Part shown: positions 4,503 to 52,688 of the stretch, piece by piece
Numbering within the stretch: the stretch's first letter is position 1
How the letters are laid out: each line of letters begins with the position of its first letter
Source: Escherichia coli
GTDB taxonomy: Bacteria > Pseudomonadota > Gammaproteobacteria > Enterobacterales > Enterobacteriaceae
NCBI RefSeq assembly: GCF_050320075.1
Contig: NZ_CP190018.1
DNA: 64,000 nucleotides
Reading direction: 5' to 3' (one strand)
Translations under genes and position numbers: made by a program
Notes under the pieces: generated by a model
Databases searched by the model: none
Told to the model about the DNA's origin: nothing
The model's input: only the letters and a program-made list of their open reading frames with translations

Positions 4503-4530
4503 GTTATCGGCCTGAATTGCGCAAAGTTTA
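4503..4530 (-). promoter_or_regulatory. sigma28 (FliA) class III promoter for fliDST
   Basis: Minus strand reads TAAACTTT-N11-GCCGATAA about 45 bp upstream of the fliD start. Confidence 0.5.
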
Positions 4531-4622: not shown

Positions 4623-4649
4623 TAAAGGTTGTTTTACGACAGACGATAA
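4623..4649 (+). promoter_or_regulatory. sigma28 (FliA) promoter for fliC
   Basis: TAAAGGTT-N11-GACGATAA about 75 bp upstream of the fliC ATG. Confidence 0.55.
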
Positions 4650-4725: not shown

Positions 4726-6396
4726 ATGGCACAAGTCATTAATACCAACAGCCTCTCGCTGATCACTCAAAATAATATCAACAAGAACCAGTCTGCGCTG
4801 TCGAGTTCTATCGAGCGTCTGTCTTCTGGCTTGCGTATTAACAGCGCGAAGGATGACGCCGCAGGTCAGGCGATTGCTAACCGTTTTACTTCTAACATTA
4901 AAGGCCTGACTCAGGCTGCACGTAACGCCAACGACGGTATTTCTGTTGCACAGACCACTGAAGGCGCGCTGTCCGAAATCAACAACAACTTACAGCGTAT
5001 TCGTGAACTGACGGTTCAGGCGACGACCGGAACTAACTCCACCTCTGACCTGGACTCCATTCAGGACGAAATCAAATCCCGTCTTGATGAAATTGACCGC
5101 GTATCCGGCCAGACCCAGTTCAACGGCGTGAACGTACTGTCAAAAGATGGCTCGATGAAAATTCAGGTCGGCGCGAACGATGGTGAAACCATCACGATTG
5201 ATCTGAAAAAGATCGACTCTTCTACATTGAAGCTGACCGGTTTTAACGTGAATGGCGAAGGTGAAACAGCCAATACTGCTGCAACACTTAAAGATATGGT
5301 TGGTTTAAAACTCGATAATACGGGGGTCACTACAGCTGGAGTTAATAGATATATTGCTGACAAAGCCGTCGCAAGTAGCACGGATATTTTGAATGCGGTA
5401 GCTGGTGTTGATGGCAGTAAAGTTTCCACGGAGGCAGATGTTGGTTTTGGTGCGGCTGCCCCTGGTACGCCAGTGGAATATACTTATCATAAAGATACTA
5501 ACACATATACGGCTTCTGCTTCAGTTGATGCGACTCAACTGGCGGCATTCCTGAATCCTGAAGCGGGTGGTACCACTGCTGCAACAGTAAGTATTGGCAA
5601 CGGTACAACAGCTCAAGAGCAAAAAGTCATTATTGCTAAAGATGGTTCTTTAACTGCTGCTGATGACGGTGCCGCTCTCTATCTTGATACTAATGGTAAC
5701 TTAAGTAAAACTAACGCAGGCACTGATACTCAAGCTAAACTGTCTGACTTAATGGCAAACAATGCTAAGGCAAAAACAGTCATTACAACAGATAAAGGTA
5801 CATTTACTGCTAATACGACAAACGATGGTTTTGATGGGGTAGATATTTCTGTTGATGCTTCAACGTTTGCTAATGCCGTTAAAAATGAGACTTACACTGC
5901 AACTGTTGGTGTAACTTTACCAGCGACATATACAGTCAATAATGGCACTGCTGCATCAGCGTATTTAGTCGATGGAAAAGTGAGCCAAACTCCTGCCGAG
6001 TATTTTGCTCAAGCTGATGGCACTATTACTAGTGGTGAAAATGCGGCTACCAGTAAAGCTATCTATGTAAGTGCCAATGGTAACTTAACGACTAACACAA
6101 CGAGTGAATCTGAAGCGACTACCAACCCGCTGGCAGCATTGGATGACGCTATCGCGTCCATCGACAAATTCCGTTCATCCCTTGGTGCTATCCAGAACCG
6201 TCTGGATTCCGCGGTCACCAACCTGAACAACACCACTACCAACCTGTCCGAAGCGCAGTCCCGTATTCAGGACGCCGACTATGCGACCGAAGTGTCCAAC
6301 ATGTCGAAAGCGCAGATTATTCAGCAGGCCGGTAACTCCGTGCTGGCAAAAGCTAACCAGGTACCGCAGCAGGTTCTGTCTCTGCTGCAGGGTTAA
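4726..6396 (+). CDS. fliC: flagellin (H antigen), 556 aa with non-K-12 central domain
   Basis: Conserved flagellin N terminus ([12 protein letters not shown]...) and C terminus (...QVLSLLQG); central region differs in length and sequence from the 498-aa K-12 flagellin. Confidence 0.95.
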
Positions 6397-6439
6397 TCGT
6401 CGTAACCTGATTAACTGAGACTGACGGCAACGCCAAATT

Positions 6440-6539
<100 letters not shown>

Positions 6540-6570
6540 ACATGAATGGTAATTTGCCAGCAACGTGCTT

Positions 6571-6595
6571 CCCCGCCACCGGCGGGGTTTTTTCT
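6571..6595 (+). terminator. rho-independent terminator ending the fliC 3'UTR
   Basis: CCCCGCCACCGGCGGGG hairpin followed by a T-run. Confidence 0.6.
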
Positions 6596-12461: not shown

Positions 12462-12686
12462 TTACTGACGGTAGGCTTGTTTAATTTGCTTAACCGTTTT
12501 GGAAAATACTGCAGCCTGGGTTTCGTCTTCGATCAGCGCAAGCTGTTTTTCCATCTTTAACATCACGCGGCCCGCGTCAGCTTGTCCCATCGCCTGCAGC
12601 ATCAGCGTCAGCATCGCTTTCAGGCAGGAGACTTCATTTGCCAGTTCTTGATTATTCTCGGCAGTAGAAAAATCAGGCGTACTCAT
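12462..12686 (-). CDS. yecF: uncharacterised protein YecF
   Basis: 74-aa ORF in conserved position between sdiA and uvrY. Confidence 0.8.
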
Positions 12687-13144
12687 TTATTTTCCTCGTC
12701 ATGTTGCAATGAAAATTTGCGGTGAAAAATGTTAAGGCGGCGGAGTATACCATAAGCTTTGCTAAAAATAGCAGTGGTTGTTTTTTGAGCGTGATATCGG
12801 CAGTGCTATAAAATACGTTAATATAATGACCAATAAATATTTTTATCATGAATGTTTTTTGCCCGTATTGTTCGGGTTAATTAATGTTACATATTCAGCG
12901 GGCTGATTTTCATTTTTGCTGAATAAAGTCAATTTTTGTCACATTTCATCGCAGGGCTTACAGTGAAACGATCCCGGAAGCCGTTGGTGACGGGCGTGAC
13001 CATAACTGTGGACAATCGAATTTACAAAAACGAGAGAAAAATCGAATACCCACCATTTTTAACGTTTCAAAGTTGCAATAAAAACCGCTAATATACGAAT
13101 GACTAACTATCAGTAGCGTTATCCCTATTTCTGGAGATATTCCT

Positions 13145-16386: not shown

Positions 16387-16462
<76 letters not shown>

Positions 16463-16516
16463 GTTTAAAAGGCATCGGCGTCAAGCGGATGTCTGGCTGA
16501 AAGGCCTGAAGAATTT

Positions 16517-16590
16517 GGCGCGTTAACAAAGCGGTTATGTAGCGGATTGCAAATCCGTCTAGTCCGGTTCGACTCCGGAACGCGCCTCCA
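16517..16590 (+). tRNA. cysT: tRNA-Cys (GCA)
   Basis: GGCGCGTTAACAAAGCGG...CGCGCCTCCA, anticodon GCA. Confidence 0.95.
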
Positions 16591-16602
16591 CTTTCTTCCC
16601 GA

Positions 16603-16689
16603 GCCCGGATGGTGGAATCGGTAGACACAAGGGATTTAAAATCCCTCGGCGTTCGCGCTGTGCGGGTTCAAGTCCCGCTCCGGGTACCA
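16603..16689 (+). tRNA. leuZ: tRNA-Leu (UAA)
   Basis: GCCCGGATGGTGGAATCGGTAGACACAAGGGATTTAAAATCCC...CCGGGTACCA, long variable arm, anticodon TAA. Confidence 0.95.
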
Positions 16690-29092: not shown

Positions 29093-32448
<3,356 letters not shown>

Positions 32449-32454
32449 GTGCGG

Positions 32455-32883
32455 TTAATCTCCCGTAAGTGGAACTAACAGCACATCGACCTCACTTGAG
32501 GCAATCACTCTTTTCGCCGAGCAGGATGCTCGCGAAAAGAAACTGTGATTGTGATTACCGCAAATCACCAAATCGAAATGATATTTGCGACAAACTTCCA
32601 GAATATGTTCGCTTAACTCACCGTAGGCAATAAACGTCTTGTCAACGGGATACCCCGCATCCTGAATTAACTTATCAAGAAAGCTTTGCGTTTCTTCCTG
32701 CATCACGCTGCGTAAATCTTCAAGCATCGGCGCAGCTAATTGATTGTACATTTCCGGGTCGGAAGCGAGAGTAATTAAACTGATGTGTCCCTTTACTGGC
32801 CTGGCGATAGATACCGCTTTTGCCAGCAGTTGCTGACTTTCCGGTGTAACCGCAACGGCGACAAGAATATTGCTATAGCTCAT
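32455..32883 (-). CDS. uspC: universal stress protein C
   Basis: 142-aa Usp-family ORF. Confidence 0.9.
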   Translation of the reverse strand: MSYSNILVAVAVTPESQQLLAKAVSIARPVKGHISLITLASDPEMYNQLAAPMLEDLRSVMQEETQSFLDKLIQDAGYPVDKTFIAYGELSEHILEVCRKYHFDLVICGNHNHSFFSRASCSAKRVIASSEVDVLLVPLTGD

Positions 32884-33385
32884 AACCTGTTCCTTATTCT
32901 GTGAACTTCAGGTGACATTAAAGCTTTACTCCTAATGGAGAAACGACGCAATCCCAACTCAGTCAAACAGGTAAATATTAGTCTGATTATTAGTAAAGAC
33001 AATTAATCAATCACTCTCGGTGATCATATGATTTCAACTGTAATTATAAGAAAATAATGTACTGATTCTCCATATTAAACAAGTGGTTAATATATGTAAA
33101 ACATTTTATTAACATTAAGTTGATTGTTGCCTTTCTTTGTATTTAATTAGTTTGTTGTGCGGTAAGTGTCTGTTTAAAAATAGCTTATCTGGTATTGCAT
33201 TAAAGCAATTATTTATAGCAGATGATTATTTACGGTGAGTTATTTTAACTGTGCGCAACATCCCATTTCGATTATTCCTGTTTCATTTTTGCTTGCTAGC
33301 GTCGCGAAAAACTTTTTAACAGATTGAAATACACCCAAAACAAAAGTATGACTTATACATTTATGTTAAGTAATTGAGCGTTTTG

Positions 33386-33401
33386 TGTGATCTGCATCAC
33401 A
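33386..33401. promoter_or_regulatory. CRP-binding-site-like palindrome in the flhDC regulatory region
   Basis: TGTGAtctgcaTCACA ~270 bp upstream of flhD. Confidence 0.5.
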
Positions 33402-33663
33402 CATTATTGAAAATCGCAGCCCCCCTCCGTTGTATGTGAGTGTAGTGACGAGTAAAGTTGCGTCGATTTAGGAAAAATCTTAGATAAGTGTAAAGAACCC
33501 CTTCTATTTGTAAGGACTTATTAAATCCCAAAAAGGGGCTCTGCCTATTGCAGCTTATCGCAACTATTCTAATGCTAATTATTTTTTACCGGGGCTTCCC
33601 GGCGACATCACGGGGTGCGGTGAGACCGCATAAAAATAAAGTTGGTTATTCTGGGTGGGAATA

Positions 33664-34014
33664 ATGCATACCTCCGAGTTGCTGAAACACATTTATGACA
33701 TCAACTTGTCATATTTACTACTTGCACAGCGTCTGATTGTTCAGGACAAAGCGTCCGCAATGTTTCGTCTCGGCATAAATGAAGAAATGGCGACAACGTT
33801 AGCGGCACTGACTCTTCCGCAAATGGTTAAGCTGGCAGAAACCAATCAACTGGTTTGTCACTTTCGTTTTGACAGCCACCAGACGATTACTCAGTTGACG
33901 CAAGATTCCCGCGTTGACGATCTCCAGCAAATTCATACCGGCATCATGCTCTCAACACGCTTGCTGAATGATGTTAATCAGCCTGAAGAAGCGCTGCGCA
34001 AGAAAAGGGCCTGA
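33664..34014 (+). CDS. flhD: flagellar master regulator FlhD
   Basis: Recognised as FlhD; start at [11 protein letters not shown]. Confidence 0.9.
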
Positions 34015-34016
34015 TC

Positions 34017-34595
34017 ATGAGTGAAAAAAGCATTGTTCAGGAAGCGCGGGATATTCAGCTGGCAATGGAATTGATCACCCTTGGCGCTCGTTTGCAGATG
34101 CTGGAAAGCGAAACACAGTTAAGTCGCGGACGCCTGATAAAACTCTATAAAGAACTGCGCGGAAGCCCACCGCCGAAAGGCATGCTGCCATTCTCAACCG
34201 ACTGGTTTATGACCTGGGAACAAAACGTTCATGCTTCGATGTTCTGTAACGCATGGCAGTTTTTACTGAAAACCGGTTTGTGTAATGGCGTCGATGCGGT
34301 GATCAAAGCCTACCGTTTATACCTTGAACAGTGCCCGCAAGCAGAAGACGGACCGCTGCTGGCATTAACCCGTGCCTGGACATTGGTGCGGTTTGTTGAA
34401 AGTAGATTACTGCAACTTTCCAGCTGCAACTGCTGCGGCGGCAATTTTATTACCCACGCTCACCAGCCTGTTGGCAGCTTTGCCTGCAGCTTATGTCAGC
34501 CGCCATCCCGGGCAGTAAAAAGACGTAAACTTTCCCAGAATCCTGCCGATATTATCCCACAACTGCTGGATGAACAGAGAGTACAGGCTGTTTAA
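34017..34595 (+). CDS. flhC: flagellar master regulator FlhC
   Basis: 192-aa ORF with zinc-binding cysteines, recognised as FlhC. Confidence 0.95.
34526..34552 (+). promoter_or_regulatory. sigma28 promoter for the motAB-cheAW operon, inside the flhC 3' coding region
   Basis: TAAACTTT-N11-GCCGATAT. Confidence 0.5.
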
Positions 34596-34653
34596 CTTAT
34601 ACGGTGTGGCGCAACATTCCAGCAGCGGTAACGACGTACCGCTGCTTTTTTTT
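34560..34653 (+). ncRNA. motR: candidate MotR-type 5'UTR-derived sRNA (sigma28 promoter to intrinsic terminator)
   Basis: sigma28 promoter at 34526..34552 followed by hairpin AGCAGCGGTAACGACGTACCGCTGCT + T8 at 34621..34653, upstream of motA; boundaries approximate. Confidence 0.3.
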
Positions 34654-34721
34654 GCCCCAATCGCGCGTTAACGCCTGACGACTGAACATCCTGTCATGGT
34701 CAACAGTGGAAGGATGATGTC

Positions 34722-35605
34722 GTGCTTATCTTATTAGGTTACCTGGTTGTTCTCGGTACAGTTTTCGGCGGTTATTTGATGACCGGTGGAAGCCTTGGAG
34801 CACTCTATCAACCCGCTGAACTGGTGATTATTGCCGGTGCAGGGATTGGGTCGTTTATCGTCGGCAATAATGGCAAAGCGATTAAAGGCACGCTGAAGGC
34901 GCTGCCGTTGCTGTTTCGTCGCTCCAAATACACCAAAGCAATGTATATGGATCTGCTGGCTCTGCTTTATCGGTTGATGGCGAAATCGCGGCAGATGGGG
35001 ATGTTTTCGCTGGAACGTGATATTGAAAATCCCCGTGAGAGCGAGATCTTCGCCAGCTACCCACGCATCCTTGCGGATAGCGTCATGCTTGATTTTATCG
35101 TCGATTATCTGCGTCTGATTATCAGCGGTCACATGAACACCTTCGAAATCGAAGCCCTGATGGATGAAGAGATTGAGACGCACGAAAGCGAGGCAGAAGT
35201 CCCGGCGAACAGTCTGGCGCTGGTCGGGGACTCACTTCCGGCGTTTGGTATTGTCGCTGCTGTGATGGGGGTCGTTCACGCGTTAGGTTCAGCCGATCGT
35301 CCTGCCGCCGAGCTGGGGGCGCTTATCGCACATGCGATGGTGGGGACTTTCCTCGGTATTTTATTGGCTTACGGATTTATTTCCCCATTAGCGAGTGTTT
35401 TACGTCAGAAAAGCGCCGAAACCAGCAAAATGATGCAGTGCGTCAAAGTCACACTGCTTTCTAATCTGAACGGTTACGCACCGCCTATCGCCGTTGAGTT
35501 TGGTCGCAAAACGCTCTATTCCAGCGAACGTCCGTCGTTTATTGAACTGGAAGAGCATGTGCGTGCGGTGAAAAATCCGCAACAACAGACGACAACCGAG
35601 GAAGC

Positions 35606-35609
<4 letters not shown>
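34722..35609 (+). CDS. motA: flagellar motor stator protein MotA (GTG start)
   Basis: 295-aa ORF recognised as MotA. Confidence 0.95.
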
Positions 35610-39025: not shown

Positions 39026-39051
39026 TTCTCCCGATTTCCTCAATTGCAATG

Positions 39052-39080
39052 AACCCGATGACCTGCGCATCGGGTTTTTT
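39052..39080 (+). terminator. rho-independent terminator after cheW
   Basis: AACCCGATGACCTGCGCATCGGGTT hairpin + T-run. Confidence 0.6.
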
Positions 39081-39111
39081 ATTTCAGTTTCGCGGCGGGT
39101 GGCATCAGCAA

Positions 39112-39138
39112 TAAAGTTTCCCCCTTCCTTGCCGATAA
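39112..39138 (+). promoter_or_regulatory. sigma28 promoter for tar-tap-cheRBYZ
   Basis: Perfect consensus TAAAGTTT-N11-GCCGATAA ~30 bp upstream of tar. Confidence 0.6.
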
Positions 39139-51853: not shown

Positions 51854-52609
<756 letters not shown>

Positions 52610-52656
52610 TTTTTACCGTTGCATCATGTCGCCCAATATGATGCTTGCTCGTACCA

Positions 52657-52688
52657 GGCCCCTGCAATTTCAACAGGGGCCTTTTTTT
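52657..52688 (+). terminator. rho-independent terminator after cutC
   Basis: GGCCCCTGCAATTTCAACAGGGGCC hairpin + TTTTTTT. Confidence 0.65.

Follow-up and report, generated by a model that had tools for sequence, protein, structure and literature searches.

The 3′ end of flhC and the short region that separates it from motA raise the question of whether a promoter located within one flagellar gene and a terminator ahead of the next together constitute a small RNA gene, and how transcription passes the terminator and enters the motA operon. The sequence analyzed (the window) is a 64,000 nt stretch of the Escherichia coli contig NZ_CP190018.1 (assembly GCF_050320075.1), and all positions are those of the window unless K-12 is named.

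The flhC coding sequence is at positions 34017–34595 (+) and is 192 aa in length (open reading frame list; RefSeq annotation of E. coli YZLc1-3 and K-12). Both the promoter and nt 1–37 of the small RNA MotR are within it, and its stop codon is at 34593–34595. The neighboring genes are uspC (32455–32883, −) and flhD (33664–34014), with motB and cheA beyond motA; the region is the enterobacterial flagellar locus. A 901-bp query displays 100% identity to E. coli YZLc1-3, where it is annotated as flhD, flhC and motA; of 5426 complete genomes of the species, 5376 contain this region. The uspC–flhD intergenic region (32884–33663) is 780 bp in length and is without an insertion sequence. K-12 MG1655 carries IS1H between uspC and flhD, which boosts flhDC expression and motility.

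The promoter within flhC

An initial annotation of this sequence placed a sigma-28 (FliA) promoter within the 3′ end of flhC, and a motif search bears this out. The −35 element TAAACTTT is at 34526–34533 (+) and the −10 element GCCGATAT, which encodes Ala177-Asp178-Ile179 of FlhC, is at 34545–34552 (+). The spacer between them is exactly 11 nt, and the whole promoter (34526–34552) encompasses flhC codons 170–179. The sequence matches the sigma-28 consensus TAAAGTTT-N11-GCCGATAA at 14 of 16 positions, i.e. there are two mismatches. This is beyond chance: with up to three mismatches allowed, five matches to the consensus are seen in the 64-kb window where 0.89 are expected, and 0 of 100 shuffled sequences reach five. 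Three of the other four matches are known promoters, those of tar (tar-tap-cheRBYZ; 39112–39138, +, a perfect consensus), fliC (4623–4649, +) and fliD (4504–4530, −, divergent from the fliC promoter).

The start of transcription (+1) is the A at 34559, as mapped from the motR annotation and from the 5′-phosphorylated cloning primer SM001 (5′P-ACAACTGCTGG...), which sets the +1 of MotR (PMC10578931). This nucleotide is 7 nt past the −10 element; sigma-28 start sites are about 6–8 nt downstream of it. In FliA ChIP-seq, a peak (FAT 101) assigned to “(flhC)motAB-cheAW” is found on the identical 28-mer TAAACTTTCCCAGAATCCTGCCGATATT, the site is listed as strong, and deletion of fliA lowers motA expression from 302 to 1 (Fitzgerald et al. 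2014, PLoS Genet, PMC4183435, Table 2 for the motif).

The terminator and the leader of motA

The initial annotation also described a hairpin followed by eight T residues (34621–34653) between flhC and motA, and this hairpin is the top match of a terminator scan of the region. The intrinsic terminator (34621–34653, +) displays a 10-bp stem (34621–34630 with 34637–34646) in which six pairs are G-C, a 6-nt loop, and a T8 tract at 34646–34653. The isolated hairpin (34621–34646) folds at −17.3 kcal/mol and is contained in the minimum-energy fold of the 96-nt RNA. A G+C-rich hairpin followed by a U tract is the structure of a rho-independent terminator. It is located between the flhC stop codon and the GTG start of motA (34722), and it ends both MotR and the flhDC mRNA.

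The rest of the motA leader (34654–34721, +) is present in read-through transcripts only. It contains the motA Shine-Dalgarno sequence GGAAGGAT (34708–34715, +) and is followed by motA (34722–35609, +; open reading frame list and RefSeq annotation), the first gene of motAB-cheAW. In this leader the sequence CAUCCU (34687–34692) is complementary to AGGAUG of the Shine-Dalgarno region (34711–34716), and across the Enterobacterales a CU-rich box recurs about as far upstream of the motA Shine-Dalgarno sequence. An anti-Shine-Dalgarno hairpin was considered here and rejected, as the predicted fold is no more stable than those of shuffled sequences (z = −0.25).

Identity with motR of K-12

In the RefSeq annotation of K-12, ncRNA motR (b4828), of 95 nt, occupies 1977208–1977302 on the minus strand and shares 37 nt with the 3′ end of flhC. 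By homology to b4828, positions 34559–34653 (+) of the window are MotR, with which the motAB-cheAW mRNA also begins. The window and K-12 copies are identical at 93 of 95 bases and have the same flanks. The promoter, terminator and leader are identical between the window and K-12, and there are only two differences over 231 nt. Thus comparison with the published MotR coordinates identifies the short transcript as MotR, in agreement with the initial annotation. That annotation had called it 5′UTR-derived. The short RNA itself stands, since a 95-nt RNA is published and annotated in K-12, but it is not purely 5′UTR-derived, as nt 1–37 are still coding sequence, from the final codons of flhC.

The published description of K-12 is that a sigma-28 promoter in flhC gives transcripts which either terminate, to form Hfq-bound MotR, or read through to form the motAB-cheAW mRNA (Melamed et al. 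2023, eLife, PMC10578931). The origin of the operon mRNA by read-through, which the initial annotation had proposed, agrees with this description. In the same work a band of about 95 nt co-immunoprecipitates with Hfq and longer bands are ascribed to read-through of the MotR terminator. The 3′ stem-loop with a U tail, which is the Hfq-binding module of MotR, is present in the window as the 10-bp stem and U8.

A scan of the whole window with Rfam 15 at the gathering threshold gave zero family matches at 34559–34653. To our knowledge there is no MotR family in Rfam, thus the missing match is not evidence against membership. The portion of the supplementary tables available from a Term-seq paper (PMC7815308) has no entry for flhC, motA or motR.

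Judged by its sequence, the feature is a known one, i.e. the strain of the window carries its own copy of the motR gene of K-12. Very probably the locus combines motR of E. coli with the promoter of motAB-cheAW and works as published for K-12; by extension from the sequence, this strain would show the same FliA dependence, Hfq binding and targets. With K-12 MotR (PMC10578931) the window shares the locus, the promoter 28-mer, the +1, the 95-nt length and the terminator, and it differs by two substitutions, G40U and A49U. FliX, FlgO and UhpU are likewise sigma-28-dependent, UTR-derived small RNAs, and have the regulon and Hfq dependence in common with MotR. Unlike MotR, however, these three derive from 3′UTRs, either by processing or through transcription from a promoter within uhpT, and MotR is the only one that comes from a 5′ leader, by termination. 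Little is new in the locus as found: publications and the annotation of the reference genome already cover the promoter and terminator, the 95-nt RNA, and the part which this RNA plays in flagellar regulation. The analysis adds a conservation check in 80 genomes, the probably derived state of one base in K-12, and a testable hypothesis on how the ratio of MotR to motA mRNA may be set in cis and why flhDC transcripts spare motA.

The seed region and its alleles

The seed nucleotides G46-U47-G48 of MotR are at 34604–34606 (+), from comparison of primer SM467 with the K-12 sequence. In the published M1 mutant they are changed to CAC (primer SM467, PMC10578931). The window has GGTGTGG at 34603–34609, and the seed GUG is intact. 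The two differences from K-12 flank it: position 34598 (+40) is T instead of G, and position 34607 (+49) is T instead of A, so that the A49 which neighbors the seed in K-12 is U here. U49 (GGUGUGG) prevails in E. albertii, Citrobacter and Salmonella and in most sampled E. coli; A49 is carried by K-12 and O104:H4. On this distribution U49 is the commoner and probably the ancestral base across the Enterobacteriaceae, and A49 of K-12 is probably derived. Much of the study of MotR has thus been done on an RNA with a probably derived base beside the seed, where the window and most relatives have U49. The seed core GGUGUGG is conserved in Escherichia, Salmonella and Citrobacter.

Within E. coli, variation is found at +40, +49 and +54, in the loop, in the length of the T tract, and in the first ~30 nt past the terminator. 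Zero variation is found within the species in the promoter, in +1 to +39, in the stem, and in the last 45 nt before motA. RNAduplex was applied to the K-12, window and M1 alleles of MotR with fliC (both alleles) and rpsJ as targets. The energies are similar and the inactive M1 scores like the wild type, thus this method is without resolving power.

Conservation in the Enterobacterales

The comparative set consists of 80 FlhC loci from the Enterobacterales, one per species. In 78 of these 80 the promoter keeps its place, its −10 element ending 43 nt ahead of the last base of the stop codon, and it has one to three mismatches to the consensus. Because the promoter overlaps a coding sequence, entropy at third codon positions was used as the measure of conservation. 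Invariance of the wobble site is found at just 8.4% of 154 conserved degenerate flhC codons. The entropy is 0 at the wobble sites of codons 167, 168 and 170–172 (the −35 region), 176–178 (the −10 element) and 182–187 (+3 to +20 of the transcript), and those of codons 170–172 are invariant in 72 species. Constraint by this promoter on the evolution of FlhC has been described (2017 preprint 10.1101/188474) and is independently reproduced here. The motif is identical to that of the published intragenic FliA promoter of motAB-cheAW (PMC4183435; 10.1101/188474), the constraint on Ala177-Asp178 is recovered by the wobble entropy, and there is no substantive difference; the frozen wobble sites of codons 182–187 are the addition.

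The terminator has a narrower distribution. The form AGCAGCGG...CCGCUGCU followed by U6–8, which gives an RNA of 91–96 nt, is found in about 62 loci, all of them in the Enterobacteriaceae and Erwiniaceae. In an alignment of 52 sequences, 93.8% of the cells of the hairpin are paired, whereas slid controls reach 20–74%. Both partners have changed in four pairs at the top of the stem; its lower 8 bp are invariant in sequence. Pectobacterium, Brenneria and Dickeya have, in place of the MotR terminator, another hairpin whose T run is weaker; in Serratia and Yersinia the promoter is kept and the terminator is missing. A MotR-like small RNA is probably absent from these five genera, or is made differently. 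Since the promoter extends across the Enterobacterales and the terminator does not, MotR as a terminated small RNA appears phylogenetically narrower and younger than the promoter, and this wider conservation of the promoter is what the 80-genome comparison adds to the published picture. As a separate observation, the loci of the five genera (L070–L082) keep the frozen +1 to +20 segment along with the flhC-internal promoter, although the E. coli-type terminator is absent.

Proposed working of the locus

In the proposed sequence of events, sigma-28 RNA polymerase would bind TAAACTTT-N11-GCCGATAT within the last 70 nt of flhC and start at A34559. The hairpin and U8 of the terminator (34621–34653) would stop most transcripts and free the 95-nt, Hfq-binding MotR. 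The central single-stranded region of MotR (around +44 to +52) would pair with the coding regions of fliC and rpsJ and raise the number of flagella, and a fraction of transcripts would read through to give the motAB-cheAW mRNA. The terminator would also end the class-1 flhDC transcript, so that motA stays dependent on sigma-28. This proposal combines the promoter and terminator, whose presence, position, statistics and conservation are established here along with the identity to the K-12 gene, with the K-12 literature on FliA binding and dependence, on the Hfq-bound RNA of 95 nt, and on the targets and phenotypes of that RNA (PMC4183435, PMC10578931).

The locus has the general design of 5′UTR-derived small RNAs formed by premature termination, in which a promoter-proximal terminator splits transcripts between a short RNA and a full-length mRNA. 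How the split is controlled can be explained in more than one way.

Control of read-through

Melamed et al. (2023, PMC10578931) explicitly speculate that read-through of the motR terminator is part of an autoregulatory loop involving S10 and NusB. Taken as the whole explanation, read-through would be controlled in trans only, by the S10-NusB antitermination complex that MotR itself raises, with no RNA element in cis. This is a tentative explanation and well below an even prospect. It draws on the finding that overexpression of MotR or MotR* raises motAB-cheAW and tar operon mRNA in the wild type, an effect that is lost when nusB is deleted (PMC10578931), although its own authors present it as a hypothesis. 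The sequence GCTGTTTAACT at 34587–34597, which spans the flhC stop codon, has two mismatches to the NusB/S10 boxA (GCTCTTTAACA). However, this sole boxA-like sequence in MotR is at chance frequency and was rejected as evidence for a Nus site; in the leader no boxA (GCUCUUUAACA-like) beyond chance was found, as the window has 25 matches at two mismatches against 17 ± 3.8 expected. A second difficulty concerns transcripts that start at flhDC. In the fliA deletion the expression value of flhC is 107 and that of motA is 1, compared with 302 for motA in the wild type (PMC4183435), thus flhDC-started transcripts read through at a rate of at most about 1%. A trans factor alone leaves this unexplained.

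The same figures would fit a switch in cis, since sigma-28-started transcripts must pass the terminator often enough to yield the 302 units. The block CUGCUGGA at 34563–34570 (+), which is MotR +5 to +12 and flhC codons 183–185, is an exact 8-bp complement of UCCAGCAG at 34618–34625 (+), which is MotR +60 to +67. The latter consists of the UCC just outside the terminator stem and the first five nt of the 5′ arm of the stem. The two are put forward, from complementarity, as the halves of a hypothetical anti-terminator. On the sigma-28 transcript, which would go untranslated at this block, CUGCUGGA would pair with UCCAGCAG once the latter is transcribed and hold half of the 5′ arm of the terminator, and some polymerases would reach motA; on the flhDC mRNA the block would be translated or buried, and the terminator would be fully efficient. 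This model is speculative and is considered unlikely, at roughly a quarter of full confidence.

In addition to the perfect complementarity, the alternative helix is the predicted minimum-energy structure for nascent RNAs of 64–86 nt, before the 3′ arm of the terminator is complete. For a transcript that starts at +1, the pairing probability of the helix is 0.97, 0.97 and 0.91 at +70, +78 and +84, and with 60–300 nt of upstream flhC RNA it is 0–0.15 at +84. The full-length alternative fold is just 3.1 kcal/mol above the terminator fold (−25.5 vs −28.6), however the terminator still wins at equilibrium (P = 0.95), and shuffling of +1 to +59 gives just p = 0.014–0.037. The case is purely one of in silico, thermodynamic prediction, and is modest.

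Both blocks are near-invariant in the 52 orthologues, including the UCC outside the terminator stem, and the 5′ block is invariant in 50 of the 52. L055 and L074, which are Cedecea-like genomes, have a matched double change (G11A with C61U), but no more than one compensatory event is represented. Shuffling of the spacer across the 52 orthologues is an uninformative control (0.98 for the native sequences, 0.94 for shuffled ones). Conservation of the 5′ block is just as high in Pectobacterium, Dickeya, Serratia and Yersinia, all of which lack the MotR terminator, thus something else also freezes this block. With respect to mutants, the change of TGC6–8 to GAG in MotR* is predicted to abolish the helix (−12.8 kcal/mol), and MotR*, which was identified by chance, is reported to be “more abundant” (PMC10578931); an alternative reason for this abundance could be stability or Hfq binding.

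In the predicted structures +5 to +12 and +60 to +67 form an upstream helix that is mutually exclusive with the terminator, which is the arrangement of an attenuator. As in classical attenuators, e.g. the trp leader, the candidate helix uses the 5′ arm of the terminator. Unlike them, the MotR leader is without an evident leader peptide or ligand-binding domain, and the predicted discriminator would be the promoter of origin together with translation of the 5′ block as flhC. A literature search that covered journals open without subscription found no description of a cis anti-terminator at motR, and the candidate helix is possibly the only new element at the locus. The mechanism put forward in PMC10578931 is confined to S10-NusB in trans. 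If the cis switch is real, one strong terminator would both insulate motA from class-1 transcription and pass class-3 transcription. It would explain the invariant lower stem and the flanking UCC as well as the more abundant MotR*. The ratio of MotR to motA mRNA would then be set in cis, a compact case of attenuation specific to the promoter of origin.

Function of the short RNA and significance of the motifs

Apart from the question of read-through, the 95-mer itself could be a functionless by-product, with the hairpin merely the flhDC terminator preceded by the promoter of the downstream gene. A terminator is needed in any case to insulate motA from flhDC transcription, the center of MotR (+38 to +59) is poorly conserved between genera, and families that have the promoter without the terminator exist. 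Against this are the published Hfq co-immunoprecipitation, the RIL-seq targets, and the phenotypes of the M1 seed mutant, including those at the chromosomal locus (PMC10578931), and also the retention of the seed core in the three genera named above. The chromosomal MotR-M1 phenotypes largely refute the by-product explanation, which is very improbable.

That the promoter-like and terminator-like motifs within and after the coding sequence are chance matches is virtually impossible and is already refuted, for although about 0.9 consensus matches at up to three mismatches are expected per window, the site has two mismatches and exact 11-nt spacing, the observed count is not reached in any shuffle, the position of the promoter is constant in 78 of 80 genomes, the wobble sites that it covers are frozen, and the promoter coincides with the FliA ChIP-seq peak.

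Other features of the window

Several further observations concern sigma-28 sites elsewhere in the window. A sigma-28-like site at 12794–12820 (−) has three mismatches, which is at the chance level, and is absent from the published FliA sites; it was rejected as a promoter candidate. It is located upstream of a 74-aa yecF-like open reading frame (12462–12686). The published weak intragenic FliA site in otsA is present at 31292–31319 (−), but its −10 element reads GGCGATAA instead of GCCGATAA, a single change that probably weakens the site further. On the strand opposite the tar promoter, and overlapping it, is the 5′ end of a match to the Rfam C0465 RNA (39045–39122, −; 100 bits).

The fliC gene (4726–6396, +) encodes 556 aa, compared with 498 aa in K-12, and 370 of its first 400 nt are identical to K-12. 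Given the difference in chain length, the window fliC is an H-antigen allele other than that of K-12. It is followed by a homologue of FliX, from the fliC 3′UTR, at 6400–6593 (+), which has about 96% identity to K-12 b4827. A cluster of three tRNA genes is at 16387–16686 (+), and a full-length MicL small RNA is found by Rfam at 52381–52688 (+; 368 bits).
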